Shown: positions 6,921-32,646 of the stretch, piece by piece
Position numbering within the stretch: the stretch's first letter is position 1
How the letters are laid out: each line of letters starts with the position of its first letter
Source of the DNA: Desulfarculaceae bacterium
GTDB lineage: Bacteria > Desulfobacterota > Desulfocorpusculales > Desulfocorpusculum
NCBI GenBank assembly: GCA_037443445.1
Contig: JBBIOJ010000001.1
Coordinates: 183,796 to 247,795, forward strand
Direction of reading: 5' to 3'
DNA: 64,000 nucleotides
Made by a program: the position numbers and the translations under genes
The notes under the pieces: model-generated
The model's database searches: none
What the model saw: the letters and a program-made list of their open reading frames with translations, nothing else
What the model was told of the DNA's origin: nothing

Positions 6921-7919
6921 GTGACCAACAGGAAAATCAGGATAGCCGGGACCGGATCATACCTTCCAGAGGGAGTTCTTTCCAACCACGACTTGGAGAA
7001 GATGGTAGATACCACGGATGAGTGGATTTATACCAGGACCGGAATAAGAGAACGCAGGATAGCAAGGGCGGACGAGAACACTTCGGATTTGGCCCTCAGG
7101 GCTAGCCTTCCTGCCCTGGAGATGGCCGGCCTTTCGGCCGAGGAGCTGGAGCTCATAGTCATGGCCACCATAACCCCGGACACCCAGTGTCCGGCAGGGG
7201 CCAACTGGCTCCAGGCCAAGTTGAACGCCCCCAAGGCCGTCACCTTTGACATAGCAGCGGCCTGCTCGGGCTTCATCTTCGCCCTGTCCGTGGCCGAACA
7301 GTACGTGAAAAACGGGACCTTCAGGAACGCCCTGGTCATAGGCGCCGAGATAATGAGCCGCACAGTGGACTACACGGACCGCTCCAGCTGCATTCTCTGG
7401 GGTGACGGGGCCGGGGCCTCTGTGGTGGTGCCCACTTTGGACGGAGAGGAGGCAGGGCTTCTTTCCCTTTCCCTTCACACGGACGGAGCAGCGGGAGAGA
7501 ACCTGCTCCTTCCGGGAGGCGGCTCCAGGACAACCCCCATAAGCCACGAGAGCGTGGAGAAAAACATGCACACCCTGCGCATGATAGAGGCCAACAGGTC
7601 CTTCAAGGTGGCAGTGAATTGCTTTGCAGAGGCCTGTCTTGAGGCTGTGGAGATGGCAGGCTGCACCATCCACGACGTGGACCACATAGTGCCTCACCAG
7701 GCCAATGCCAGGATTATCCAAGCCATGGCAAAAAAGCTGGACGTGTCCATGGACAAGGTGGTCATGACCATAGAAAAGTACGGAAACAGCTCTTCGGCCA
7801 CGGTTCCCATAGCCCTGGATGATGCTGTGCGCTCAGGCAGAATAAAGAAAGGAGACCTGGTTCTCCTGACTGCCTTCGGCGGCGGACTCACCTGGGGAGG
7901 CGCCCTCATACGCTGGTAA
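6921..7919 (+). CDS. fabH: 3-oxoacyl-ACP synthase III
   Basis: GTGSYLP, TGIRERR, catalytic AACSG / PHQAN / YGNSSSAT, FGGGLTWG; GTG start after a GGAGGA RBS. Confidence 0.95.
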   Translation: MTNRKIRIAGTGSYLPEGVLSNHDLEKMVDTTDEWIYTRTGIRERRIARADENTSDLALRASLPALEMAGLSAEELELIVMATITPDTQCPAGANWLQAKLNAPKAVTFDIAAACSGFIFALSVAEQYVKNGTFRNALVIGAEIMSRTVDYTDRSSCILWGDGAGASVVVPTLDGEEAGLLSLSLHTDGAAGENLLLPGGGSRTTPISHESVEKNMHTLRMIEANRSFKVAVNCFAEACLEAVEMAGCTIHDVDHIVPHQANARIIQAMAKKLDVSMDKVVMTIEKYGNSSSATVPIALDDAVRSGRIKKGDLVLLTAFGGGLTWGGALIRW

Positions 7920-8817
7920 GCCTGCAGAAATTGCAGGGATCTCCGAAGGAGGCTGCCCCGCAAAGGGAGCATCGGCTGAGTTCTCCCTCTGGGGGGGGCT
8001 GTGGGCCTTGTTTTCCTTTCCAAACCTCAAGGAGCTTGGCGGCCTCTTTGAGAAAACCCTGGTAGAAACTGGCCTTGGTGCCTGGCATCCGGTCCTCCAG
8101 AAGATTGAGCACCTCCTTGTACCGCAGGGAGGTGGCCCCTCGGCTCATGGGGCACTCCTGGATCACGTAGTCTATGTTGCGCAAGATGGCGTACGCAGCT
8201 GTCTCACGTTCCGTGAGCCTGCAAAGGGGCTGCACCTTCCGGGCCAATAGTTCCCCCACGGCTTCCAGAACCGGCCTTTGCTTAAGGAGGTATTCCCACT
8301 GCCAGTGAAGCAGATTTCCCAGGAGCCTTCCTGCCTCGTCGTCCAGGTTGTGACCTGTGGCCACAACCCTGTAACCCCCTTCCACCGCCAGCTTGTTGAA
8401 AAAGTGCCTTTTTACTATGCCGCAGACAGAGCATTCGGGCCTGCGGCTCCTGCGGGCCAGCAAGGGTATGGGGATCTGCAGCTCCTCAAGGGAAACGCAC
8501 CTCAGGGTCAGGCCCCTTTGCTTTGCGAACCCCTCCACCTTCTGGCGCGAGTGTCTTGAATAATCCTCTATGCCCAAATCCACGTGCAGCCCGTGGGCCT
8601 CGTACCCCAGGTTGCAGAGCAGATCCCACAAGGCCAGGGAGTCCTTTCCCCCTGAGACGCAAACAAGCACCCTCTCGCCCTGCTCCATCATCCTGTGCTC
8701 CTGGATGGCACGGCGCACCTGCCTCCTTACGAACTCGAAGAAACACTCCTTGCAGAATGCGGTGTGATGGTGTTTCAAGTCCACGAGCGCTTTTTGCTGG
8801 CAACGTCTGCACTTCAT
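7906..8817 (-). CDS. ttuA: tRNA 2-thiolation PP-loop ATPase, TtuA/Ncs6-like
   Basis: N-terminal CxxC...CxxC Zn finger, SGGKDS PP-loop, CSVC and ECP (Fe-S ligands), TGHNLDDE, C-terminal CSLC..CNFC finger. The 3' end overlaps the convergent fabH by 14 nt. Confidence 0.85.
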   Translation of the reverse strand: MKCRRCQQKALVDLKHHHTAFCKECFFEFVRRQVRRAIQEHRMMEQGERVLVCVSGGKDSLALWDLLCNLGYEAHGLHVDLGIEDYSRHSRQKVEGFAKQRGLTLRCVSLEELQIPIPLLARRSRRPECSVCGIVKRHFFNKLAVEGGYRVVATGHNLDDEAGRLLGNLLHWQWEYLLKQRPVLEAVGELLARKVQPLCRLTERETAAYAILRNIDYVIQECPMSRGATSLRYKEVLNLLEDRMPGTKASFYQGFLKEAAKLLEVWKGKQGPQPPPEGELSRCSLCGAASFGDPCNFCRLTSV

Positions 8818-8822
8818 CGGTT

Positions 8823-9020
8823 TCAGCCTCCGGAGATAACCGGAATTATCTCCACCTGATCCCCGTCATCTATTCGGATGTCCCTTGTGAGAAGTTCACC
8901 GCTTCGCATCACCAGCACCGAGCCCTCCACCATGGACATCTCCCGAAGTAGCTCATGAACCGTCTTGGGCCCGTCCATCTCTTTCTCCAGGCCTGTCTGT
9001 CTGTTCAGCACACGAATCAT
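8823..9020 (-). CDS. ttuB: ThiS/MoaD-family sulfur carrier (TtuB-like)
   Basis: 65 aa ubiquitin-like protein ending IIPVISGG; immediately upstream of ttuA; ATGA overlap with the upstream gene. Confidence 0.85.
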   Translation of the reverse strand: MIRVLNRQTGLEKEMDGPKTVHELLREMSMVEGSVLVMRSGELLTRDIRIDDGDQVEIIPVISGG

Positions 9021-9979
9021 CCTCCAGACTCCAATTTCTTGTTTTTGATCGCTCTTGAAGTATATCGTTGCAAGAAAGGCACGCCCATGAGGGTGTCTGC
9101 CCAGTAGCGCATTGTGCAAAGAATCCCTATTCCGGCCATGGTGGCCCCGTCAACATAGGGGGCGAAAAGAACTATCAAGGCCGTGTCCCTGGTGCCCATG
9201 CCAGCCATGCTGACAGGCAACAAACCCACCAGCAAGGAAAGGGGCACATAGGCCAGAACCGGGCCCGGCTCAATGGATTGCCCCAGGCTGGGGAAAAACA
9301 GGTAAATCTGGAGCAGGTGAAGGCCCCAGAGGAGCAAAGAAAGGCCCGCTATACCCGCCAGAAGAACTTTCTTGGCACGCCACCTGGCCAAGATCCAGTC
9401 CCAGCCCAGAAGCATCTCCCCGAGGCGGACCCTGATACCCCTGCCCTCTCCCGCCAGCAAACCCGCCCACCTCCCCATGGGAAGAAGAAACATCAAGGTG
9501 GTGGCCCCCATCACTCCCAGTGAAATGATCCAGGCCGCTGTGAGGGCCTGTGAACCCCGAGGCGCCAAAGCGGCCCCAAGGAGCATCCATGCGCACAGGC
9601 CGGCCAGATCCAGGACCTTTTCCATAAGGACCGCCGGCACTCCTTTGGCCACGGCTTGGGAAGAGCGCTCCCTCAAGAAATAGGCCTTGCTCATCTCCCC
9701 AAGCTTGGAGGGCAACAGAGCGTTGAGGGCCTTCCCGGCCATGACCATCCCCAAGGACTCCACCCAGTTCATGTTGGCCCAGCCTTCCCCCATCAACCAC
9801 CAGCGGGTCGCACTCACCAGGACCTGGGGCAGGAAACAGACCAAAGCTGCTATGAGCCAAGCAGGCTCAGCCCTCCAAAGCCTCCCGGCCATGGCATGCA
9901 GGTCTACGTGGGCGTAAATGACCCCCAGGATCACCACGGAGCAGGCCAGCCCCCCCCAACGTAAGGCCAGCCTTTTCAT
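9017..9979 (-). CDS. Lysylphosphatidylglycerol-synthase TM-domain / flippase-like membrane protein (UPF0104, AglD2-like)
   Basis: RWWLM, NALLPSKLGE, EKVLD, LLPVSMAGMGTRD motifs; multiple TMs; start reset to ATG 9979. Confidence 0.8.
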   Translation of the reverse strand: MKRLALRWGGLACSVVILGVIYAHVDLHAMAGRLWRAEPAWLIAALVCFLPQVLVSATRWWLMGEGWANMNWVESLGMVMAGKALNALLPSKLGEMSKAYFLRERSSQAVAKGVPAVLMEKVLDLAGLCAWMLLGAALAPRGSQALTAAWIISLGVMGATTLMFLLPMGRWAGLLAGEGRGIRVRLGEMLLGWDWILARWRAKKVLLAGIAGLSLLLWGLHLLQIYLFFPSLGQSIEPGPVLAYVPLSLLVGLLPVSMAGMGTRDTALIVLFAPYVDGATMAGIGILCTMRYWADTLMGVPFLQRYTSRAIKNKKLESGG

Positions 9980-14227: not shown

Positions 14228-16537
14228 TCATGGCATATTCTTGGGGACCCATCTGGTTCCAGAGGGGGTGTCCACCAGGAGAACTCCCATCCTGGAGAGC
14301 TCCTCCCGGATACGGTCCGCCTCTGCCCAGTTCCGAACTTGGCGCGCCTTTTCCCTCCTGGCAATCAGCTCCAGGATCTCCCCTTCTTGGGGAACCCTGG
14401 CCTCCGGCTCCAGAACCTGAAGCACTGTGTTGGCCTTCTGCAGGAAACTCAGGGCGCTTTGGGCCTGGTTGGGGCTCACGGCACCCTCATCCAGAGCCTG
14501 ATTCAACTGCTTGGCCAGGGTGAAAATGGCAGCCAGCGCCACCGATACGTTCAGATCGTCATCCATGGCTGACTCGAACTCTTCCCCGGCCCGGGAAATC
14601 CAGCCAGAAACCTCCTTCCCGGCCTCCTGCCCTTCTGTCCACCTCAATCTCAGAACCAGGCGATCCAATCTTGCCAGGCTTTTTCTGGCAGCGTGAAGGG
14701 CCTGCACTGAGAAATGCAGCGGTTTGCGGTAGTGAGTCCCCAGAAGCAGAAACCTGATCTCCCTACCCTTGAATCCACGGGCAAGCAATTCTTTCAAGCT
14801 CAACCTGCCCGATACGCTCTTCCCGTCCAGCAACACGCGCTCGGAGTGGATCCAGTAACGACAGAACCTCTTACCACTCAGGGACTCGCATATGGCGATC
14901 TCGTTTTCATGGTGTGGAAACATCAGGGCGCGTCCACTTGTGTGAATGTCTATGGTTTCTCCCAGGATGTGGCTGGCCATGGCCGCGCACTCGATGTGCC
15001 ATCCAGGTCTCACCTGCCCCCAAGGGGAGGAGTAGGTGATCCCCTGCTTCAGCTCGGCCAGGGTCGAGCGCTTGAACAAAGTGAAATCCCTGGGGTTGTC
15101 CTTCTCATAATCATCCAGATCCACGGTCAGGCCCAGCCTGATCTTGCGCAGGTCCACCCTGGAGAGATGGCCGTAGGAAGGGAACTTGGAAATGTCGAAG
15201 TAAAGGGAGCCATGCTGGCAGTACGCCAGGCCCTTCTGCTCCAGGAGCTGCCCCATCTTCACCATGGCCTCCACGTACTGGCTGGCCCTTGGATACTCAT
15301 GGGCCGGTTGGATGGAAAGCACTGCCATGTCTTCAAGAAAAGAGGTTATGTGGGCCTCTGTGAACTGTCTCAGCGCAACCCCTGAAGCCTGGGCCCCCTG
15401 GATGGTCCTGTCGTCCAGATCTGTAACGTTCATGACGTGGCGCACCTGAAACCCCTTGTACTGCAGGTATCGCTTGAGCAGGTCCGCCACCACCGCCCTG
15501 CGGCAGAACTCCAGGTCCACCGGGCCATCCACCGTGGGTCCACAGGAGTACATCCGAACCCTGCCGGGCTCCAAAGGCTCGAAGTTCTCCTTGCGACGGC
15601 TCAGAGTGTTGTAAAAGCAGAAAGAAGGGATCTCCCTGGGCACGAACAAGGAGGTGCTAAGGTACCTGTCCCCACCGTCGGGCAGGATGACAACTATAAG
15701 ACCCTGCTCCAGGCCCCGGGCCATCCTGAGGGCACCGGCCAGGGCTGCTCCGGAGCTCATCCCGGCGAAAATACCTTCCTCCCTGGCCAGACGCCGGGTC
15801 ATCTCGAAGGCTTCCTCGTCTTCCACAACGAGCTTGGTGTCTATACGTTCCTTTTCAAATATTCCCGGGACATAGGATTCCTTGAGATTCTTGAGCCCTT
15901 GTATCTTGTGGCCGGGCACCGGCTCCACGGCCACCACGCCTACATTGGGGTTTAGCTCCTTGAGCCTCCTGGCCAACCCCATCACGGTTCCGGTGGTACC
16001 CAGGGACGCCACCACGTGGGTGATCCGGCCATGGGTATCTTTCCATATCTCTTCGGCAGTGCCCAGGTAATGAGCCCTCCAGTTGTCAGGGTTGTTGAAC
16101 TGGTCAGGCACGTAGAATCTTTCAGGTTCCTCCCTGGCCATCAGGTATGCACGCTCTATGGCCCCGTCAGTGCCCCGCTGTGCTGGAGTCAGTATTATCT
16201 CAGCCCCGAGGGCCCGCAGGATCTTCCTGCGCTCCAGACTGGCCCCCTCGGACATGGTGAGCATGAGCTTGTAGCCCTTCACCGCGCACACCAAGGCCAA
16301 GCCTATGCCTGTGTTTCCGCTGGTGGCCTCCAGGACCGTCATCCCGGCTCTCAACTCTCCCCTGGCCTCTGCTCCCTCTATCATGGAAAGGGCCGCCCTG
16401 TCCTTCACAGACCCCCCGGGGTTTCGAGACTCCAACTTGACAAACACACGCACCCGCCTGTTTGTGTGAATTCTTCTCAACTCCACCATGGGAGTGTGAC
16501 CTATGAGCGCCAAGACACCCGCCCTAGCCTTGCCCAT
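14228..16537 (-). CDS. Fusion: PLP cysteine synthase (CysM/CysK) + degenerate cysteinyl-tRNA synthetase-like module
   Basis: N-terminus: NPGGSVKDR (PLP Lys), ATSGNTG, GTTGT, GMSSG, PDGGDRYLS. C-terminus: CysRS fold (YSCGPTV, NVTDLDD, SPWG.VRPGWHIEC, FPHHENE, MDDDLN, NWAEADRIREEL) with HIGH and KMSKS degenerate. One continuous ORF. Confidence 0.9.
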   Translation of the reverse strand: MGKARAGVLALIGHTPMVELRRIHTNRRVRVFVKLESRNPGGSVKDRAALSMIEGAEARGELRAGMTVLEATSGNTGIGLALVCAVKGYKLMLTMSEGASLERRKILRALGAEIILTPAQRGTDGAIERAYLMAREEPERFYVPDQFNNPDNWRAHYLGTAEEIWKDTHGRITHVVASLGTTGTVMGLARRLKELNPNVGVVAVEPVPGHKIQGLKNLKESYVPGIFEKERIDTKLVVEDEEAFEMTRRLAREEGIFAGMSSGAALAGALRMARGLEQGLIVVILPDGGDRYLSTSLFVPREIPSFCFYNTLSRRKENFEPLEPGRVRMYSCGPTVDGPVDLEFCRRAVVADLLKRYLQYKGFQVRHVMNVTDLDDRTIQGAQASGVALRQFTEAHITSFLEDMAVLSIQPAHEYPRASQYVEAMVKMGQLLEQKGLAYCQHGSLYFDISKFPSYGHLSRVDLRKIRLGLTVDLDDYEKDNPRDFTLFKRSTLAELKQGITYSSPWGQVRPGWHIECAAMASHILGETIDIHTSGRALMFPHHENEIAICESLSGKRFCRYWIHSERVLLDGKSVSGRLSLKELLARGFKGREIRFLLLGTHYRKPLHFSVQALHAARKSLARLDRLVLRLRWTEGQEAGKEVSGWISRAGEEFESAMDDDLNVSVALAAIFTLAKQLNQALDEGAVSPNQAQSALSFLQKANTVLQVLEPEARVPQEGEILELIARREKARQVRNWAEADRIREELSRMGVLLVDTPSGTRWVPKNMP

Positions 16538-16823
16538 GCTCTCCCTCCAGGGCTCCCGCAAACTCCGAAAAAGCAATTATGCTACATGAGGCCGTGCAGG
16601 CCAACCCTCTTGGCTCAAAAGCCCGGGCAGCAGTTCCCTGTGCTTCCCGGGCTGGAGGCCACGGGGAAGCCTCTTTCCCAAGGCACAAAAGGCAGTCAAT
16701 TCAATATAATACCTTCTGGAAGGTGACTCTCAACATTGAAAACAAGCCCCGGGGTTGATATATTAGGGATACCAGAGAGTGAGGCTGGCTCGCAAACATC
16801 CATTCAGAAGAGGGAGGCGCTCC

Positions 16824-17972
16824 ATGGCCTACGCTTTGGAACAGGGACCCATAAGGCCGCCCAGCGAGGCCAGAAGCCTGCTGATCAGGGTTACGCGAAA
16901 CTGCCCCTGGAACAGGTGTGAGTTCTGCAACATATACAAGGGAAAGAGCTTCAGCAGGCGAAGCGTCCAGGAGGTGAAGGCGGACATCCAGGCAGCCAGG
17001 GCAGCCTACGAGGAGATACAGGCCCTTTCATGGCGCATGGGCATGGCCGGCCGCGTGGAAGAGGGGCTCATTCAGGTTCTTTGGAGCGATCCCCGCCGCT
17101 ACGGGGAGGCCCACAGGTCAGTGGCCGCCTGGATGTATTTCGGGGCCCGCAACGTGTTCCTACAGGACGCCAACAGCCTCATCCTGGAAACCGGGGAGCT
17201 GGTGGAGATACTTGAGTTCCTCAAGCGGACTTTTCCATCAGTGGAGCGCATCACCTCTTATGCCCGCTCCTCCACCTTGCGGCGAAAGAGCCTGGAGGAT
17301 CTCAAAGCCCTCAGAGAAGCAGGTTTGAACCGTATCCATGTGGGCATGGAATCCGGCTATGACCCCCTGCTGAAGTTCATGCAGAAAGGGGTCACCGCCC
17401 AGGGGCATGTGGAGGCTGGAAGGAAAGTGGTGGAGGCAGGGATTTCCCTCTCGGAATACATGCTCCTGGGTCTGGGCGGGAAAAGATGGTGGAGAGAGCA
17501 TGCCATAGAGAGCGCCAGGGTCCTGAATCAGATAAATCCCCACTTCATCAGGATAAGGACCCTTACGGTGAGGCCTGGGATGCCCCTCAATGAGAAGATC
17601 CTCTGCGGGGATTTCCAGCTCCAGTCAGAGGAGGAGATAGTGCGGGAGGAAAGGCTCTTCATAGAAAATCTGGAGGGAATCACAAGCCGGGTGGCCAGCG
17701 ACCACATCCTGAATCTTCTGGAAGAAGTGGAGGGAAAGCTCCCCGAGGACAAACCACGCATGCTGGAAGTGATAGACGAGTACCTGGGTTTGAGCCAGAG
17801 AGACAAGCTGGTGTATAACCTGGGACGCAGGGGGCATGAGTACAGAAGCGTAAAGGACCTGGCGGATCTGGCCCTGAGAAGGCGGGTGGAGGCAGCCCTG
17901 GACAGTTTCATGGAAGAGCATTCCCAGGATCTGGATTCGGCATTCAACCAGCTGAGAAACGAGTTCATCTGA
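16824..17972 (+). CDS. Radical SAM protein of unknown function
   Basis: CPWNRCEFC (CxxxCxxC); GPIRPPSEA N-terminus; LQDAN, GMESG. Confidence 0.85.
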   Translation: MAYALEQGPIRPPSEARSLLIRVTRNCPWNRCEFCNIYKGKSFSRRSVQEVKADIQAARAAYEEIQALSWRMGMAGRVEEGLIQVLWSDPRRYGEAHRSVAAWMYFGARNVFLQDANSLILETGELVEILEFLKRTFPSVERITSYARSSTLRRKSLEDLKALREAGLNRIHVGMESGYDPLLKFMQKGVTAQGHVEAGRKVVEAGISLSEYMLLGLGGKRWWREHAIESARVLNQINPHFIRIRTLTVRPGMPLNEKILCGDFQLQSEEEIVREERLFIENLEGITSRVASDHILNLLEEVEGKLPEDKPRMLEVIDEYLGLSQRDKLVYNLGRRGHEYRSVKDLADLALRRRVEAALDSFMEEHSQDLDSAFNQLRNEFI

Positions 17973-18037
17973 AACAGCCCCGGGCCTTGCTGCCGGGAAC
18001 AGGAAACTTCCTCTTGTTGGAAGCCTCCGGAAAACCG

Positions 18038-18949
18038 ATGCCTTTTCCTCCTCGTTACAGGGAGCTGAGCGGTTTTCTGAAAGAAAGGTTCGGCTTCAGG
18101 GTTCAAAAGATACCACTGGATGCAGGGCTGGGCTGTCCCAACCGGGACGGAAAAGTGGGAAGGCAAGGCTGCTCCTACTGCGACTCCCTGGGTTCAGGCA
18201 CAGGGGCATGGGCCCAGGGCATGGGCATCGAGCAACAAATCCGGGCCTATCTGAGCCGGGCCCGTAAGGTCAGGGCTGGAGGCTACTTGGCCTACTTCCA
18301 GTCTTTCACCAACACCTATGCCCCCGTGGAAAAGCTCCGGGCCCTGTACCAAGAGGCCCTGGACTTCCCTCAGGTGGTGGGTTTGTGCGTGGGCACCAGG
18401 CCGGACTGTCTGGATGAGCCGGTCTTGGAACTCCTCTCTGAAATAAATCTCAGGGCCATGGTCTGGCTGGAGCTGGGGCTCCAAAGCGCCCACGAGGAGA
18501 CCCTCAGGAAAATCCAAAGGGGACACGGCTTCGAGGTTTTCAAAGAGGCTGTGCAGCGTGCAAGTTCAAGGGGTCTCCTGGTGTGCACCCACCTAATCAT
18601 AGGGCTGCCTGGGGAGACCAGGGAGCATGTCAGAGCCACGGCCAGGAGGATCTCCGGGCTGCCCATCCATGGTCTCAAGCTCCACGGGCTTTACGTGGTG
18701 AGGGGCACGCACATGGAATCCCTGTACAGGGATGGTCTTTACGAGCCTTGGAGTCTTGAGGAGTATGTGGAGGGGGTTTGCGACGTGTTGGAGTTGATCC
18801 CGCATGACTGGGTCATCCACAGGCTCTGCTCAGACCCTGACCCGCGCACCTTGGTGGCACCTTTCTGGATGCTCCAGAAGCAGGCCACCCTGGAGCGGAT
18901 TCGGCTTCGGATGCTGCAGCGGGACACCTGGCAGGGAAAACTATGTTGA
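18038..18949 (+). CDS. TIGR01212-type radical SAM protein (YhcC/YtqA family)
   Basis: KIPLDAGLGCPNRDG...GCSYC, YFQSFTNTY, GTRPDC, ELGLQS, THLIIGLPGE, IHRL. Confidence 0.88.
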   Translation: MPFPPRYRELSGFLKERFGFRVQKIPLDAGLGCPNRDGKVGRQGCSYCDSLGSGTGAWAQGMGIEQQIRAYLSRARKVRAGGYLAYFQSFTNTYAPVEKLRALYQEALDFPQVVGLCVGTRPDCLDEPVLELLSEINLRAMVWLELGLQSAHEETLRKIQRGHGFEVFKEAVQRASSRGLLVCTHLIIGLPGETREHVRATARRISGLPIHGLKLHGLYVVRGTHMESLYRDGLYEPWSLEEYVEGVCDVLELIPHDWVIHRLCSDPDPRTLVAPFWMLQKQATLERIRLRMLQRDTWQGKLC

Positions 18950-20329
18950 TCCCGCCTGGGCAGGGGTTTGAAGCCTTTCCAGAAGCCATTTTTTGAGGGC
19001 CTCTTCTTGGTTCAGCTCCGGCTCCAGGAGCACGGCCTCTTGCATCTGTGCCAGGATCTCCCCGACCCTTGGACCAGGCTCCAGTCCCAGCAACCTCATC
19101 ACCTCCCTGCCATCCAGGACCGGGCGCATCTTCCCCAAGGCCTCGGGCTCGCTCAGGATGAGCCGGAGCTTCTCCAGAAGCCCTCCCAAAGAGCAGACCA
19201 CTTGGCTGGGTGCACCCACAGCCTCCAGACTTGCCTTTCTGAGGAGGATTGCGTCTTCCACGCACAAGATCCCTGCCTGGAAGATGAGCCTGCGCAAACG
19301 GCCTTCATCCCACGGGCCCCTGGGGGAAAGGGCATGGTGGTAAAGTATCCTGGCTGTTTGCTCCGTCTGCCTGCGGCTCACCCTCAGCCTCCAGAGCACC
19401 TCCCTGGCCTTGGAAGCCAAAGCCTCCTGGGGACCTTCTGCTGTAAGAGGGGAGAAATCCCTATCCAGCCCCAACATCAATGCAGCCCACCTCAGGGGTA
19501 CGCGTGCAGGCAAAAGATCAGCCGTATTCAGCAACCAGGAGAGGCTGGAGGGCTTGCCTCCGGACTCCAGCTCCGGCAGTATCTCTTTCATGAGAGAGGA
19601 TTCCACCAGGAGCTTCAAGGCTCCAGAAGGGTTTTTCACAAGCAGAATCCTCTCCAGCTCCTGTCTGATCCGCTCCAGAGCAACTTTTTTCAGGCTTGCT
19701 GCAGCTGCCCTGATGGCAGCCCTCAGCTCGGGATCCAGACGCAGTCCCAGCTCGGCTGCCAGCCTAATCCCTCTCAAGGCCCTCAGGGGATCTTCGGCCA
19801 TTCTCTCGGAGGCCTGCCCCACGGCTTTGAGAAGCCCGGCCTGTGCATCTGCTCTTCCGCCGTGGGGATCCAGGATGGAGCCTGCCTGCAGGTCGTAAGC
19901 CATGGCGTCCAGGGTAAAATCCCTGTGGGAGAGATCATCCCATATGGATTTTCCCCTGAAGCTGCTCACCTCTATGTTTTGACTGGTTAACCTTACGGTG
20001 ACCGTGCCGTGACGGGCTCCGGTCAGGATGACCCTGGGAAAGAGCGAGGAGATCTGGGAAGGGGATGCGCTGGTGGCCACATCCCAGTCCTGGGGGACTC
20101 TTCCCAGGACAAGGTCCCTGACAGCCCCACCCACAACAAAAGCCTCGTGGCCTGCCGTGGAGAGTCTTAGCAGAACCTCCAGCACCTGGGCTGGAGGCTC
20201 AAGAAAAGCCTGGCTCCCTGTCAAGGTCCTCTGCGCACCTTTGGACGTCTGAAAAAGCCCAGGAAACTCTCCCCCCAAAGCAGGCCGTACATCACTGCCA
20301 GGGGAACCAGAAGAAAAAGGAGCCTCCAC
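18941..20329 (-). CDS. Class II tRNA nucleotidyltransferase, likely CC-adding type (true start may be TTG 20224)
   Basis: VGGAVRD, DWDVAT (DxD), HRDFT, EDPLRALR, ERIRQEL; flexible loop between EVSSFR and DDLSHRD deleted; no HD motif seen. Confidence 0.8.
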   Translation of the reverse strand: MEAPFSSGSPGSDVRPALGGEFPGLFQTSKGAQRTLTGSQAFLEPPAQVLEVLLRLSTAGHEAFVVGGAVRDLVLGRVPQDWDVATSASPSQISSLFPRVILTGARHGTVTVRLTSQNIEVSSFRGKSIWDDLSHRDFTLDAMAYDLQAGSILDPHGGRADAQAGLLKAVGQASERMAEDPLRALRGIRLAAELGLRLDPELRAAIRAAAASLKKVALERIRQELERILLVKNPSGALKLLVESSLMKEILPELESGGKPSSLSWLLNTADLLPARVPLRWAALMLGLDRDFSPLTAEGPQEALASKAREVLWRLRVSRRQTEQTARILYHHALSPRGPWDEGRLRRLIFQAGILCVEDAILLRKASLEAVGAPSQVVCSLGGLLEKLRLILSEPEALGKMRPVLDGREVMRLLGLEPGPRVGEILAQMQEAVLLEPELNQEEALKKWLLERLQTPAQAGST

Positions 20330-28414: not shown

Positions 28415-28719
28415 CTCAATCCTCCTGTCTCGAGTCTGAACGCGATCCTCTCACTCCCAAGTTCTTCTCCATCGGGCTCTCGATTCTGGATTTTCTCACA
28501 AAGCGTCTCTTGGATCCAGGATTTCAGGCAGGCCTCCCTGGGTTCCCTGTTTTCTCCACGGGGGCGATGGCTCCAGTTGCCTCATTCCGGAGACTGGGCT
28601 CGGCTCAATGGGGCGTGAGGTGGATCTGGGAAGAGGCCGGTGCTAGACTTGTGTGGCAAGCGTCAAGACAAAGGCTGAACGCCCCAGCCTGCAGAGCGTG
28701 AGCGCGGGAGATCTTCTTG

Positions 28720-29424
28720 ATGGAGAGACCCTATGAAGTCTTGGTGGTGAGTGCGCATCCAGATGATGTGGACTTCGGGTGTGCCGGAACAGTGGCCTTG
28801 TGGGCCAGGGCGGGAGCCAGAATCAACTATGTGATCTGTACCGATGGGGACAAAGGCACCGAGGAATTGTCCACCAGGCCTCAGGAAACAAGTGCACTTA
28901 GAAGGCAAGAGCAGCTTGCGGCAGCCCGGCTGGTGGGTGTGCGAGAGGTGATTTTCCTGGGTTTTCCCGACGGTGAGGTGGAAAACACCAGAGAGCTCAG
29001 AAAGCAGCTTGTAAGGTGGATAAGGGAGTTCAAACCCGAGGTGGTATTCTGCCAAGATCCTGCCAACAGGGTTTTTGAAAACCCTTATGTGAGCCACAGG
29101 GATCACCGGATGGTGGCAGAGGCGGTTTTTGACTCCCTGTACCCTGCCTGCGGGAATCCCAACTTCTTTCCAGAACTGCTGGAAGATGATTTGATGCCTC
29201 ATAAGGTCAAAGAGGCCTTCTTTTTCGGAACCCACTCACCCAATCATTGGGAGGACATAACCAGCGTGATGGAGCTCAAAGTGAAGGCCATCCTTTCACA
29301 CAAGAGCCAGCTAAAGGATCCCGTTTCCACGGAGAAGTTCCTGCGCCAGCGCTTCGGGGAAATAGGAAAACAGGCTGGATGCCTTTACGCGGAGCCTTTC
29401 CGCAGGCTTCTGCTTCCCCCCTGA
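28720..29424 (+). CDS. PIG-L/LmbE-family deacetylase
   Basis: AHPDDVDFG, TDGDKG, R.QEQ..AA, HRDH. Confidence 0.9.
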   Translation: MERPYEVLVVSAHPDDVDFGCAGTVALWARAGARINYVICTDGDKGTEELSTRPQETSALRRQEQLAAARLVGVREVIFLGFPDGEVENTRELRKQLVRWIREFKPEVVFCQDPANRVFENPYVSHRDHRMVAEAVFDSLYPACGNPNFFPELLEDDLMPHKVKEAFFFGTHSPNHWEDITSVMELKVKAILSHKSQLKDPVSTEKFLRQRFGEIGKQAGCLYAEPFRRLLLPP

Positions 29425-29647: not shown

Positions 29648-31144
29648 ATGGGGCTTCGCATTTACAATTCTCTTACCCACCGCAGAGAGCTTTTCGAACC
29701 GCTTGAGCCGGGCCATGTTCGCATGTACGTCTGCGGAGTGACCGTTTACGACGAATGCCATGTGGGGCACGCCCGTTCGGCAATAGTCTTCGACGTGATT
29801 TACAGATACCTCAGACACATGGGGTTCAATGTTACATATGTCAGGAATTTCACTGACATAGATGATAAGATCCTGGAAAGAGCCCGCCGGGAGGGGCTTG
29901 CCTGGGATGAAATCTCCAGGAAATATATCGCTGCATTTCAGCGGGACATGGAATCCCTGGGCGTATTGCCCCCCACTCTGGAGCCCCTTGCCACAAAGCA
30001 TATAGCCGACATGATAGAGATGATCAAGGCTCTCCAGGAAAAAGGTGCGGCCTACGCGGTTGATGGAAACGTGTACTTTTCGGTTTCCAGCTTCCCCGGG
30101 TACGGGAAGCTTTCTCGAAGGGATAGGGAGCAGATGGTGGCCGGGGCAAGGGTGGAGCCGGACGAGCGCAAGAAAGATCCTCTGGATTTTGCCTTGTGGA
30201 AAAGCAGTAAGCCCGGAGAGCCCGCCTGGGAAAGCCCCTGGGGGCCTGGCAGGCCGGGCTGGCACATAGAGTGCTCATGCATGAGTCAAAAGTACCTGGG
30301 GCAGCCCCTGGACATCCACGGGGGCGGTCTGGATCTGGTTTTCCCTCACCACGAAAATGAAATAGCCCAATCCGAGGCCCTCACCGGAGAGGCCTTGGCC
30401 AGGTTCTGGATACACAACGGGCCCCTTACCAGGGAAAAGGTGAAGATGTCCAAGTCCCTGGGGAACATCCTGAGCATTCGGGCGGCCCTGGAGCGGTACC
30501 ATCCAGAGGAACTTCGTCTTTTCTTTCTCATGACCCACTACCGCAAGCCCTTGGATTTCACAGAGGCAGGCATGGCAGAAGCCCAGACAGCCCTGGAGCG
30601 CCTTTACAGGACCCTGGAGAGAATAGACAAGATTGTAGCGACTCGGGGCCTCCAAGACTCCCCGAGACTCCGGCCAGAGCCTGGGCACGTCCCGGAGCTG
30701 GCCCCTTGGCTCCAACAGTTCCATGAAAAGTTCCAGGAGGCCATGGAAGACGACTTCAACACCCCCAGGGCCTTGGCCGGGCTGTTCGACCTGACCAGGA
30801 GACTCAACCAGTGGATGGATAATCCAAATTTCCCCACGGGTTCCAAAGTTTCGGAATTGCTTGGGGCTGCCCGGGCCTGCTATGAACTGGCCCGGAGCTG
30901 TCTGGGAATTCTGCAGCTGCACCCTGGGGAGTTCCAGACCCAAAAAGAGGACCTCCTCCTGGGCCGCCTGGGTCTGGAAAGGGAGCAGATCCAAGAGCTG
31001 CTGCTGAGGAGGTCCCAGGCTCGAGCGGAGCGAAATTTTTCCGAGGCCGACAGAATACGAGATGAGCTTGCAGCCAGGGGGATTCAGCTTCTGGATTCTC
31101 CTCAGGGCACAACCTGGAAGATCAAACCTGGAGCTTCTTGCTGA
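29648..31144 (+). CDS. cysS: Cysteinyl-tRNA synthetase (canonical)
   Basis: YVCGVTVYDECHVGH (HIGH), PGWHIECS, HGGGLDLVFPHHENE, KMSKS, C-terminal anticodon domain. Confidence 0.97.
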   Translation: MGLRIYNSLTHRRELFEPLEPGHVRMYVCGVTVYDECHVGHARSAIVFDVIYRYLRHMGFNVTYVRNFTDIDDKILERARREGLAWDEISRKYIAAFQRDMESLGVLPPTLEPLATKHIADMIEMIKALQEKGAAYAVDGNVYFSVSSFPGYGKLSRRDREQMVAGARVEPDERKKDPLDFALWKSSKPGEPAWESPWGPGRPGWHIECSCMSQKYLGQPLDIHGGGLDLVFPHHENEIAQSEALTGEALARFWIHNGPLTREKVKMSKSLGNILSIRAALERYHPEELRLFFLMTHYRKPLDFTEAGMAEAQTALERLYRTLERIDKIVATRGLQDSPRLRPEPGHVPELAPWLQQFHEKFQEAMEDDFNTPRALAGLFDLTRRLNQWMDNPNFPTGSKVSELLGAARACYELARSCLGILQLHPGEFQTQKEDLLLGRLGLEREQIQELLLRRSQARAERNFSEADRIRDELAARGIQLLDSPQGTTWKIKPGASC

Positions 31145-31164
31145 AGCGAATTCCCGGTGGGGAC

Positions 31165-32646
31165 ATGAGGATTCCAGGCATCTTGGCACTCTTGGCCAGT
31201 CTTTTGATGCTTTCGGCTCTAGCCAACGGGGAGGTGAGGGCCATGCAGCCGGTGAGGGAGCCTTCTGTTGCAGGTCAGTTTTACCCTGAGCAGCCCGAGT
31301 CACTCAAAAGAGAGATCAGAAATTTTCTCCAAGCTCCCCCCCTCAGCCCTGCCGAGCCACCCCCCTTGGCCATCCTGGCTCCTCATGCCGGGTATATGTA
31401 TTCGGGGGCTGTGGCCGGCAGGAGCTATGCCCTGGTGAAGGGCCGAAGCCTAGACACGGTGGTGGTATTGTCCCCCAGTCACAGGGTGGGTTTTCGAGGG
31501 GTGTCTGTGTGGCCCAAGGGAGGGTATAGGACTCCCCTGGGCGTAGTGCCGGTGGATGAAGAAAGATGCCTTCTTCTCTTGGAATCCGCTCCCATGGTCC
31601 GGGAGCTTCCTGAGGCTCACGGCCGGGAGCATGCCTTGGAGGTGCAAATCCCTTTCTTGCAGGAGAGCCTCTCAGGGGGATGGAAACTCATACCCTTGGT
31701 GATGGGCAGCCAGGACCTGCAAACCGCCCGCGACTTGGCTGGCGCGCTGGAGAAAGTCCTGGCAGGAAGCAGATTCCTGGTGGTTGCCTCCTCTGACCTT
31801 TCCCATTTTCATCCTGCCGAAACCGCACAGAGGATGGATCAAAAGGTCCTTCAATACCTGGAAAGGGTGGATCCTGAGGGCCTCTGGGAGGAGGTCTCAG
31901 GGGGAAGGCTGGAGGCTTGCGGCATAGGGCCAATCTTGACTGCCCTTTGCATGGTGAAGAGCCTCGGGGTTACCAAGGGCGAGGTGCTGGTGTATTCCCA
32001 TTCAGGGGAGATCTCTGGGGATCGTTCCAGGGTGGTGGGTTATGGGGCGGTTTGCTGGAGAAAGGTGATGCAGGAGGGCAGGCAGGCAAGCCCAAAGGTG
32101 GGGGTGGATCTGGGGTTGAGCCAGGAGGAAAGGAAGCTCCTCAAGGAACTGGCCAGAGAGAGCATTGTCTCGGCCCTGGAGGGCAAGCCATTACCAAGGC
32201 TCTCGGAGGTGCCCCCGGGGTTGCAAGAGCACAGGGGGGCATTCGTGACCCTGGAGAAGAAGAAGAGGCTTAGGGGCTGCATAGGGTTTATCCAGGCTAC
32301 AAGGCCTCTTTACCAGACCGTGCAGGAGGCGGCCAGGGCGGCTGCTTTTGAAGATCCACGCTTTTCTCCCCTCACCCGTGAGGAGTTGCCCAAGGTGGAG
32401 ATAGAGATATCGGTGCTGACCCCCATGGAGCGGATCACGGACCCCTCCCAGGTGAAAGTGGGCACCCACGGCCTTTACCTGGTGAGGGGGGCAAGAAGAG
32501 GGCTCCTGCTGCCCCAGGTGGCCACAGACAATGGCTGGGATCTGGAGACTTTTTTGTCCCAGACCTGCATCAAGGCCGGTTTGCCGCCAAATGCCTGGAA
32601 AGACCCTGACACAGAAATCTACACTTTTTCGGCCGATGTCTTTTGA
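31165..32646 (+). CDS. AmmeMemoRadiSam system protein B (MEMO1) - protein A (AMMECR1) fusion with an N-terminal signal peptide
   Basis: VAGQFYP, PHAGYMYSG, EHALEVQIPF, SSDLSH, EACG, VVGY; then GAFVTL...LRGCIG, DPRF, EISVLTP, GLLLPQVA, KAGLP. Confidence 0.92.
   Translation: MRIPGILALLASLLMLSALANGEVRAMQPVREPSVAGQFYPEQPESLKREIRNFLQAPPLSPAEPPPLAILAPHAGYMYSGAVAGRSYALVKGRSLDTVVVLSPSHRVGFRGVSVWPKGGYRTPLGVVPVDEERCLLLLESAPMVRELPEAHGREHALEVQIPFLQESLSGGWKLIPLVMGSQDLQTARDLAGALEKVLAGSRFLVVASSDLSHFHPAETAQRMDQKVLQYLERVDPEGLWEEVSGGRLEACGIGPILTALCMVKSLGVTKGEVLVYSHSGEISGDRSRVVGYGAVCWRKVMQEGRQASPKVGVDLGLSQEERKLLKELARESIVSALEGKPLPRLSEVPPGLQEHRGAFVTLEKKKRLRGCIGFIQATRPLYQTVQEAARAAAFEDPRFSPLTREELPKVEIEISVLTPMERITDPSQVKVGTHGLYLVRGARRGLLLPQVATDNGWDLETFLSQTCIKAGLPPNAWKDPDTEIYTFSADVF

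Follow-up and report, generated by a model that had tools for sequence, protein, structure and literature searches.

What use does a bacterium have for a cysteine synthase fused to a cysteinyl-tRNA synthetase (CysRS) whose ATP site is gone? The question is raised by a gene in a stretch of 64,000 nucleotides from a Desulfarculaceae bacterium (GTDB genus Desulfocorpusculum; assembly GCA_037443445.1, contig JBBIOJ010000001.1, positions 183,796 to 247,795 of the forward strand), which we call the window and within which all coordinates are given. The gene lies at 14228..16537 on the minus strand and encodes, in this order, an intact CysM-type cysteine synthase, a linker of ~9 residues, and a full-length CysRS-like module. 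We found that the ATP motifs of the module have been replaced, that its sequence is under strong constraint, and that its anticodon-binding residues are kept throughout a family of at least 265 fusions. We argue that the module probably serves to bind tRNA-Cys.

Architecture of the fusion

The gene ends with a stop codon at 14228-14230, and a listing of open reading frames (ORFs) extends it to a TTG start (14228..16576, minus strand). The Shine–Dalgarno sequence GGAGGGAG (16541..16548, minus strand) lies ahead of an ATG at 16537 that is aligned with the starts of all homologues, and we therefore take the product to have 769 amino acids. It is 100% identical to a database entry (P0001) located on a 268 kb contig. 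Pfam matches to PALP (residues 10-287), tRNA-synt_1e (319-618), DALR_2 (653-709), and CysS_C (722-763), together with profiles and alignments, divide the protein into five parts, all on the minus strand. The CysM-type O-acetylserine sulfhydrylase domain (residues 1-298; 15644..16537) is followed by the linker VPREIPSFC, whose ends are set by the flanking domain alignments (residues 299-307; 15617..15643). The module then consists of a CysRS-like Rossmann fold with its CP domain, in which the ATP site is lost (residues 308-618; 14684..15616), a stem-contact and helical-bundle (DALR) region (residues 619-712; 14402..14683), and a C-terminal anticodon-binding domain (residues 713-769; 14231..14401).

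The CysM domain has the appearance of a working cysteine synthase. Its alignment to the CysM proteins of Salmonella and E. coli extends over the full domain (283 bits, ~47-48% identity), and in Foldseek it superposes on the CysM structure 2bhs with a target-normalised TM-score (TMt) of 0.95. All catalytic motifs are common to the fusion and these enzymes; in place of the last ~11 residues of CysM, the fusion has the linker and a 462-residue module. The fusion scores 380.3 against the cysKM subfamily profile TIGR01136 (cut-off 344) and 376.2 against the cysM equivalog profile TIGR01138, below its cut-off of 394.2. The earlier note on this DNA, made from the sequence alone, had called the lysine that binds pyridoxal phosphate (PLP) intact, and direct translation agrees: Lys45 is encoded at 16403-16405 (minus strand) within SVKDR (16397-16411). 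The motifs TSGNTG, GTTGT, and SSG are likewise intact in the window protein. Across 84 fusions, K45, T72-G77 (TSGNTG), G180-T184 (GTTGT), and S261, which contacts the pyridine nitrogen, are invariant.

Loss of the ATP site and retention of the other sites

In class I synthetases, ATP motifs of the HIGH and KMSKS type are needed to make the aminoacyl-adenylate. We compared the module with 54 canonical, stand-alone CysRS sequences: 52 from a genome scan, the E. coli enzyme, and the window's own cysS. The latter, which had been recognized before as fully canonical, lies at 29648..31144 on the plus strand, carries HVGH, GGLDL, and KMSKS, and scores 543 bits on the cysS equivalog profile TIGR00435 (cut-off 340).

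All three ATP motifs are replaced in the fusion, and translation and alignment recovered the same strings at the same positions that had first been read. DLEF (residues 341-344; 15506..15517, minus strand) aligns with HIGH of E. coli CysRS and HVGH of the window's cysS, a position that reads H-[ILV]-G-[NH] in 54/54 canonical sequences. TSGRAL (residues 533-538; 14924..14941, minus strand) takes the place of GGGxDL/CGGVDN, with SGRAL aligned under GGSDL/GGLDL. The KMSKS loop is reduced to KSVSG (14807..14821, minus strand), aligned as KSV---SG under KMSKSLGN, a deletion of three residues by eye against the window's own cysS and of six gap columns in the multiple alignment. The second lysine of KMSKS, K269 in E. 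coli, is present in 54/54 canonical sequences and absent from the window fusion. The 11 members of the window's clade share this state: D341 is kept in 10/11 and F344 in 11/11, and the KMSKS loop is shortened and devoid of any conserved lysine.

These losses are not random, since they are concentrated in the ATP motifs. Among the 101 columns that are invariant in the 54 canonical sequences, the window protein differs at 10 of 11 ATP-motif columns vs 13 of the 90 others (Fisher p = 5.7e-7). Given the enzymology of class I synthetases, we infer that the module of the window fusion cannot make Cys-AMP. In a set of 145 fusions, canonical residues at ATP-site positions are kept to very different degrees (K269 3%, G226 3%, N/H at position 40 39%, D229 65%, H37 63%).

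The cysteine and tRNA sites tell a different story. An alignment of homologues had been named as a check on whether the Zn/cysteine ligands, the GWH motif, and the anticodon-domain pattern are conserved as the ATP motifs disappear; in the 145 fusions, Zn and anticodon positions are conserved at 96-100%, and HIGH, GxDL, and KMSKS are variable or lost. Alignment and translation identify the four Zn ligands of the window protein, all on the minus strand, as Cys332 (E. coli C28; 15542..15544, within SCGPT at 15533-15547), Cys517 (C209; 14987..14989, within GWHIEC, of which WHIEC spans 14987-15001), and His542 and Glu546 (H234 and E238; 14900..14914, within FPHHENE at 14900-14920). Conservation across the 145 fusions is 98% for C28, 99% for C209, 100% for H234, 96% for E238, 98% for T68, 98% for W205, and 100% for H206, and all seven residues are present in 11/11 members of the window's clade. 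For residues other than the Zn ligands, the roles given here are ones that we presume from general knowledge and conservation. The numbering of the Zn ligands in E. coli CysRS is confirmed by published work (PMC5660078). In the anticodon-binding domain, of which 14306-14356 translates to REKARQVRNWAEADRIR, the window protein keeps R728, A731, R732, D741, R744, G751, and D756; their E. coli counterparts R423, A426, R427, D436, R439, G446, and D451 are each conserved in at least 97% of the 145 fusions.

Despite the loss of its ATP motifs, the fusion scores 390.7 bits on TIGR00435, above the cut-off of 340. This accounts for its name in databases, without demonstrating activity.

We also considered whether the protein could be a CARS-type cysteine persulfide synthase (CPERS). 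These enzymes need the lysines of KIIK (K73, K76) and KMSK (K266, K269), which bind PLP (PMC5660078). The window protein has R377 and Q380 (DDRTIQ) at the former positions and no KMSK, so that 4/4 required lysines are absent and a CPERS function is ruled out.

As a separate observation, the first His of HIGH (E. coli position 37) has become Asp in many separate lineages of the family (DLEF, DIGQ, DLSM, DITH, DVAH, DLLH, DP[DE]A), and Y33 often reads D, H, or N. The substitutions at positions 33 and 37 are single-nucleotide neighbours; the repeated appearance of an acidic residue at the former phosphate site is striking even so.

The dead module is under strong purifying selection

A module that has lost its catalytic motifs might simply be decaying, an alternative that had been named at the outset as fatal to a functional reading. 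We measured the ratio of nonsynonymous to synonymous substitution rates (dN/dS) between the window and two relatives (L081 and L082) whose fusions are 85-86% identical to that of the window; because dS is near saturation, the ratios are approximate, and the conclusion is robust to this saturation. The ATP-dead Rossmann/CP domain gave dN/dS of 0.036-0.048, equal to that of the CysM domain (0.047-0.054) and, within the same pairs of genomes, to that of the Rossmann domain of canonical CysRS (0.029-0.055). The helical region gave ~0.24, like the equivalent region of canonical CysRS, and the C-terminal domain 0.09-0.20. In a further relative (L083), the fusion and an orthologue of the canonical cysS share one JGI contig; for this cysS, comparison with the window gave 0.055 in the Rossmann domain (90% identity) and 0.20 in the rest (66% identity). 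In amino-acid identity, too, the dead Rossmann/CP domain (89%) matches the canonical Rossmann domain (90%). The dead module is thus as constrained as an essential synthetase. These ratios, and intact ORFs across ~265 full-length aligned sequences, rule out a decaying gene or pseudogene.

A family with graded and recurrent erosion

The guess that fusions of similar length would exist in related deltaproteobacteria proved correct on a larger scale than supposed: the family comprises at least 265 sequences across Desulfobacterota. A homology search with the window fusion returned at least 120 matches, and among the matches listed all except P0021 (632 aa) are fusions of ~755-820 aa, mainly from Thermodesulfobacteriota and 'Deltaproteobacteria' metagenome-assembled genomes. 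A genome scan added 26 fusion loci in Desulfobulbales, Desulfobacterales, and Thermodesulfatator, none of them from the window's own clade. A search seeded with a divergent representative (P0280) returned at least 120 further fusions. Cultured hosts include Desulfovibrio ferrophilus, Desulfocurvus vexinensis, Desulfobaculum xiamenense, Maridesulfovibrio hydrothermalis, M. zosterae, Salidesulfovibrio onnuriiensis, Desulfoplanes formicivorans, and Desulfocurvibacter africanus. In a neighbour-joining tree, calculated without support values, the fusions cluster by their CysRS modules in a single group, sister to HIGN-type CysRS from Bathyarchaeia, Zixibacteria, Chlamydiae, and others. The canonical copy in the window, an HVGH bacterial type, falls outside this group; its nearest named CysRS is that of Desulfacinum infernum (54%).

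Across this family, erosion of the ATP site appears graded and recurrent rather than specific to the window's lineage. At one end stands P0278 (found in three assemblies), a fusion with entirely canonical motifs; it is nearer to canonical CysRS than to the family, and it is therefore either basal or an independent fusion. Several deep lineages carry HLGN / SGTDL / KKMSRS. E. coli CysRS with K266A or K269A still supported cell-free translation (PMC5660078), so the HLGN / SGTDL / KKMSRS state may still bind ATP. The three ATP motifs are kept together in 23/145 fusions and in 0/25 of the fusions from GTDB genomes that are translatable without stops, and all three are lost in the window's clade and in at least four other lineages. 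The Desulfovibrionales (n = 120 fusions) have gone furthest: C28, C209, H235, E238, T68, and H206 are lost there as well, and R423, A426, R427, D436, R439, G446, D451, and G455 are kept at 90% or more. Anticodon-binding residues are present in at least 90% of sequences in every branch examined. Together with the CysM catalytic apparatus, they are what every branch keeps, with a CP-domain motif (see below) almost as general, as overall module identity falls to ~30% across orders. Since the Desulfovibrionales have lost the Zn/Cys pocket and kept the anticodon reader, tRNA binding and not cysteine binding is probably the universally selected feature.

The milder members of this series bear on whether the fusion could be a bifunctional enzyme, in which the module charges tRNA-Cys through a noncanonical ATP site and newly made cysteine is channelled into translation. 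The existence of P0278, the score above the cut-off of TIGR00435, and the activity of the E. coli lysine mutants, by which HLGN/KMSRS members might be active, could be taken in its favor. In the window protein, however, none of the three ATP motifs survives, the HIGH positions are taken by acidic and aromatic residues, the KMSKS loop is shortened, and a canonical cysS is at hand in the same window. We consider bifunctionality extremely improbable, and for the window protein the earlier suggestion of product channelling, if taken to mean channelling into tRNA charging, cannot be upheld.

The same series lends some weight to the view that the module is a structural passenger, kept solely for the folding, solubility, or oligomerisation of CysM and without meaningful binding of tRNA or cysteine. 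Catalytic features have been eroded progressively and repeatedly, the ATP site first and then the Zn site, and the gene has no conserved genomic partner. A pure scaffold, however, would not be expected to keep the Arg and Asp residues of the anticodon domain at 90% or more across orders at ~30% overall identity; the window's clade retains all four Zn ligands in 11/11 members, and the module evolves as slowly as an essential CysRS. We regard the passenger view as unlikely.

One locus may illustrate how the fusion arose. In L025 (2334-4635), unfused cysM and cysS genes lie 4 bp apart, and the cysS has canonical HIGN and KMSKS motifs, yet already shows family-type substitutions in its CP domain. 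The pair looks like a prefusion stage, as judged from these residues; its bin is labelled Parcubacteria DG_74_1, a label that is doubtful.

Other combinations of these domains were seen among the sequences collected. P0204, P0236, and P0392 (~712 aa) have an N-terminal region of ~225 residues followed by a canonical CysRS. In P0204 and P0236 this region gives a hexapeptide-repeat (Hexapep) Pfam match, which suggests a serine-acetyltransferase-like domain; this would be another fusion of cysteine biosynthesis with CysRS. P0326 (858 aa) is a tandem CysRS-CysRS, and P0294, P0297, P0300, P0309, P0336, P0363, P0409, and P0422 (675-995 aa) are tandem CysM-CysM proteins.

A conserved motif in the remodelled CP domain

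The CP domain of the module is remodelled with respect to canonical CysRS (W184F, G190Q, W194Y, G201V, Q241I, and a four-residue insertion) and contains a family-specific motif, TVDLDDYEKDNPRDFTLFKRSTLAELKQG...SPWG (residues 471-507; 15017..15127, minus strand), with the consensus TxDLxxYxKxNPxDFTLxKRxxLxxLKxG...WG. T471, D473, L474, N481, P482, T486, R490, L493, L496, K497, G499, and W506 are each conserved in at least 90% of the 145-fusion set. In the Desulfovibrionales set, ten of the motif residues reach 90% or more, with L474 at 82% and L496 at 84%. These residues are rare in canonical CysRS and near-invariant in both fusion subfamilies, which indicates a new conserved surface.

An AlphaFold model built from an 84-sequence alignment predicts that both modules are confidently folded (mean predicted local distance difference test, pLDDT, 87.2), with a disordered linker (pLDDT <50 at residues 300-303) and a predicted TM-score (pTM) of 0.61. 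Foldseek matches of the module to CysRS structures have TMt 0.82-0.91; one of them, over 478 columns, is the tRNA complex 1u0b. Its identity to canonical CysRS is 36-37% in structural alignments and 37-40% in sequence alignment over the module.

A probable tRNA-Cys-binding module that may gate cysteine synthesis

The conservation pattern points to tRNA-Cys binding as the selected function, and by this evidence the module of the window fusion probably binds tRNA-Cys. The earlier note had proposed a nonadenylating module kept for binding cysteine and/or tRNA-Cys. Loss of the ATP motifs with retention of the Zn and anticodon sites supports this proposal for the window protein, and each computational check suggested there turned out in its favor; the cysteine part would not hold for the family at large, because the Zn/Cys pocket is gone in Desulfovibrionales.

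We tentatively propose that the fused synthase is gated by the pseudo-synthetase through its binding of tRNA-Cys or Cys-tRNA-Cys, a model to which we give somewhat less than even confidence. A CysM-type cysteine synthase would be permanently tethered to a full-length CysRS-fold pseudo-synthetase that is unable to bind ATP. Transfer RNA-Cys would dock on the module through the anticodon-binding domain and the remodelled CP domain. In the window's lineage, the Zn-thiolate pocket, which normally holds the cysteinyl moiety, would still be on offer; once its ATP site is gone, a CysRS is in effect left to bind its product. The adjacent PLP domain would then be modulated according to whether the module is occupied by charged or by uncharged tRNA-Cys, or has free cysteine in its Zn pocket, such that cysteine output is set by translational demand. 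This may meet a plausible need of sulfate reducers, which are rich in sulfide and in which sulfide supply would be useless as a control signal. Loss of adenylation, docking of tRNA-Cys, and control of CysM by the module are the parts of this picture that we infer.

Several points weigh against gating. Regulation is one of several possible uses of a tRNA-docking domain. Since the Desulfovibrionales lack the Zn pocket, discrimination of charged from uncharged tRNA by means of the thiolate is not a universal mechanism. Some deep-lineage members with HLGN and KMSRS may still adenylate, and the dead forms may be kept for a structural reason. With a pTM of 0.61 and a disordered linker, the domain arrangement cannot be inferred from the model, which therefore shows no allosteric path. 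ORF clustering over the window and 29 fusion loci (30 sources in all; in one locus no fusion ORF was called) gave no gene neighbours conserved beyond clade level. Finally, Rfam over the window gave no family that reached its gathering score, and so no riboswitch or T-box.

If the module does dock tRNA-Cys, the CysM domain might act on the tRNA itself. The module would present O-phosphoseryl (Sep)-, Ser-, or O-acetyl-Ser-tRNA-Cys to the PLP domain for beta-replacement on the tRNA, making the fusion a functional analogue of SepCysS/SelA or a modifier of Cys-tRNA-Cys (e.g. to a persulfide). The anticodon reader and the acceptor-side motif of the CP domain are the only CysRS features shared by all branches, also where no Cys pocket is left, and the short, length-conserved linker holds both modules close. 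CysM chemistry is aminoacrylate beta-replacement, as in SepCysS and SelA. Against this, the CysM alpha-carboxylate loop TSGNTG and Q146, as found in enzymes that use free O-acetylserine, do not vary across 84 fusions; canonical CysRS already provides Cys-tRNA-Cys; neither the scanned window ORFs nor the called neighbours in related loci include a SepRS- or SepCysS-like gene; and reviews of indirect Cys-tRNA pathways mention no such enzyme. Chemistry on the tRNA is in our estimate improbable, and because invariant TSGNTG, Q146, PLP Lys, and GTTGT fit a free amino-acid substrate, regulation is mildly favored over it. A stricter form, in which the dead CysRS grips both the anticodon and the acceptor arm as a template and CysM carries out PLP chemistry on the residue esterified to A76, seems to us a shade more doubtful again; it could yield Cys-tRNA-Cys from a mischarged precursor or convert Cys-tRNA-Cys to another species, such as a persulfide.

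Alternatively, the ATP-less fold might use Cys-tRNA-Cys as a donor and attach cysteine to an acceptor, either the CysM product or the precursor of a thiol cofactor. The logic is that of cyclodipeptide synthases, which resemble aminoacyl-tRNA synthetases, lack ATP motifs, and use aminoacyl-tRNA. There is precedent for class I synthetase-like folds that use aminoacyl-tRNA (PMC2922099), and the window's clade keeps the Cys pocket and the tRNA determinants without the ATP site. However, the Zn/Cys pocket is absent from the large Desulfovibrionales branch, and in none of the clades does the gene lie within a biosynthetic cluster. We consider such a transferase very unlikely, and gating of the synthase by tRNA-Cys is the reading that we carry forward.

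Genomic context

The scanned ORFs of the window are ordinary chromosomal genes, and no tRNA gene was found anywhere in its 64 kb. Across the family, synteny exists at clade level only, with glnD/glnA/amtB in Desulfobulbaceae, murJ or lptD elsewhere, and membrane/GT2 genes in the window's clade; tblastn of the window's neighbours vs the loci of other clades, Desulfovibrionales included, gave no match.

Several genes near the fusion are related to tRNA or sulfur transfer. Some 5 kb downstream, beyond four membrane/GT2 genes and on the strand of the fusion, a gene for a ThiS-like sulfur carrier (8823-9119, minus strand) is followed by a gene for a TtuA-like PP-loop protein of tRNA 2-thiolation (7906-8817, minus strand; NF049949, 271 bits, below cut-off), an arrangement kept in L081-L083 and not in other clades. 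Upstream of the fusion lie a radical-SAM gene (16779-17972), a radical-SAM MnmL/YtqA tRNA-modification gene (17987-18949; TIGR01212, 336 bits), and a gene resembling CCA tRNA nucleotidyltransferase (18941-20329, minus strand). This local cluster of tRNA-related genes, the TtuA-like gene included, may be a coincidence.

The canonical cysS has neighbours of its own. Directly upstream is a PIG-L family deacetylase (28717-29424, plus strand) that matches BshB1, BshB2, Mca, and MshB best, each below cut-off. The two genes are also paired in L084 and L085, an arrangement that recalls the pairing of MshB with MshC, and of BshB, in low-molecular-weight thiol pathways; the window's cysS has a full anticodon domain. 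A fused AmmeMemoRadiSam gene (protein B plus protein A; Memo plus AMMECR1) at 31138-32646 on the plus strand overlaps the cysS stop and is likewise kept in L084 and L085.

Relation to known systems and significance

Canonical CysRS (E. coli 1LI5/1U0B; 8QHP) shares fold, domain order, Zn ligands, and anticodon invariants with the module; it differs in having HIGH, GGxDL, and KMSKS, an unremodelled CP domain, and no fused CysM. MshC is, like the module, a CysRS paralogue with a Zn/Cys pocket and a nontranslational role. However, MshC has retained the ATP motifs and is without an anticodon domain, the exact opposite of the module, which scores 175 on TIGR03447 (cut-off 485).

Two pseudo-synthetases offer closer parallels. 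HisZ is a HisRS paralogue that regulates HisG; it is of class II, a separate subunit, and without an anticodon-binding domain, and to our knowledge it does not use tRNA. As in the fusion, an inactive paralogue of the cognate synthetase is attached to a biosynthetic enzyme of the same amino acid, and HisZ, in a further likeness to the window module, keeps the amino-acid pocket for control. Unlike HisZ, the fusion module is of class I and covalently fused, and its anticodon reader is its most conserved feature. The HisRS-like domain of eukaryotic GCN2 binds many uncharged tRNAs and, by sensing them, controls a kinase. Here too a dead synthetase domain is joined to an effector enzyme, and in GCN2 tRNA binding reports charging; the module differs from that of GCN2 in its anticodon residues, which are CysRS-specific, and in its partner, a metabolic enzyme. 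The fusion is thus an aminoacyl-tRNA synthetase-derived pseudo-enzyme attached to metabolism, unusual in two respects: it keeps the cognate anticodon reader, and its partner in the fusion is the cysteine synthase itself. We know of few pseudo-synthetases that regulate metabolism (HisZ, GCN2), and none of these combines recognition of its cognate anticodon with fusion to an enzyme producing the amino acid in question.

Coupling of PLP-dependent cysteine formation to tRNA-Cys is known from the SepRS-SepCysS-SepCysE transsulfursome, where it is achieved by a tRNA-binding scaffold (PMC8762117, PMC5424206). SepCysS, whose substrate is Sep-tRNA, is a PLP enzyme of fold type I, whereas the fusion contains a fold-type II CysM with an intact carboxylate site for free substrate. 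Full-text literature searches, and targeted reading of the two main surveys of indirect Cys-tRNA pathways, yielded no description of a CysM-CysRS fusion. The sequences of the family are public under two conflicting names: the ATP-dead window type is entered as 'cysteine--tRNA ligase', and the more eroded Desulfovibrionales type is 'cysteine synthase' at NCBI (JGI sometimes has 'cystathionine beta-synthase'). Because the dead copy passes the cysS equivalog cut-off, automated reconstructions will overcount CysRS.

Several orders of sulfate-reducing bacteria carry members of the family; cultured Desulfovibrionales are among the hosts, so that direct tests may be feasible. The natural series of the family, from canonical to ATP-altered, ATP-dead, and both ATP- and Zn-dead, singles out tRNA binding as the probable selected function. 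If the fusion carries out chemistry on the tRNA, it would constitute a new indirect pathway; if it reads tRNA-Cys as a template, it would be a second, independent tRNA-dependent route to a sulfur amino acid, built from CysM and a pseudo-synthetase. In Bacillus, cysES is under T-box control by tRNA-Cys. If the fusion is a sensor, it would be the protein counterpart of the T-box, with cysteine synthesis set by the status of tRNA-Cys.

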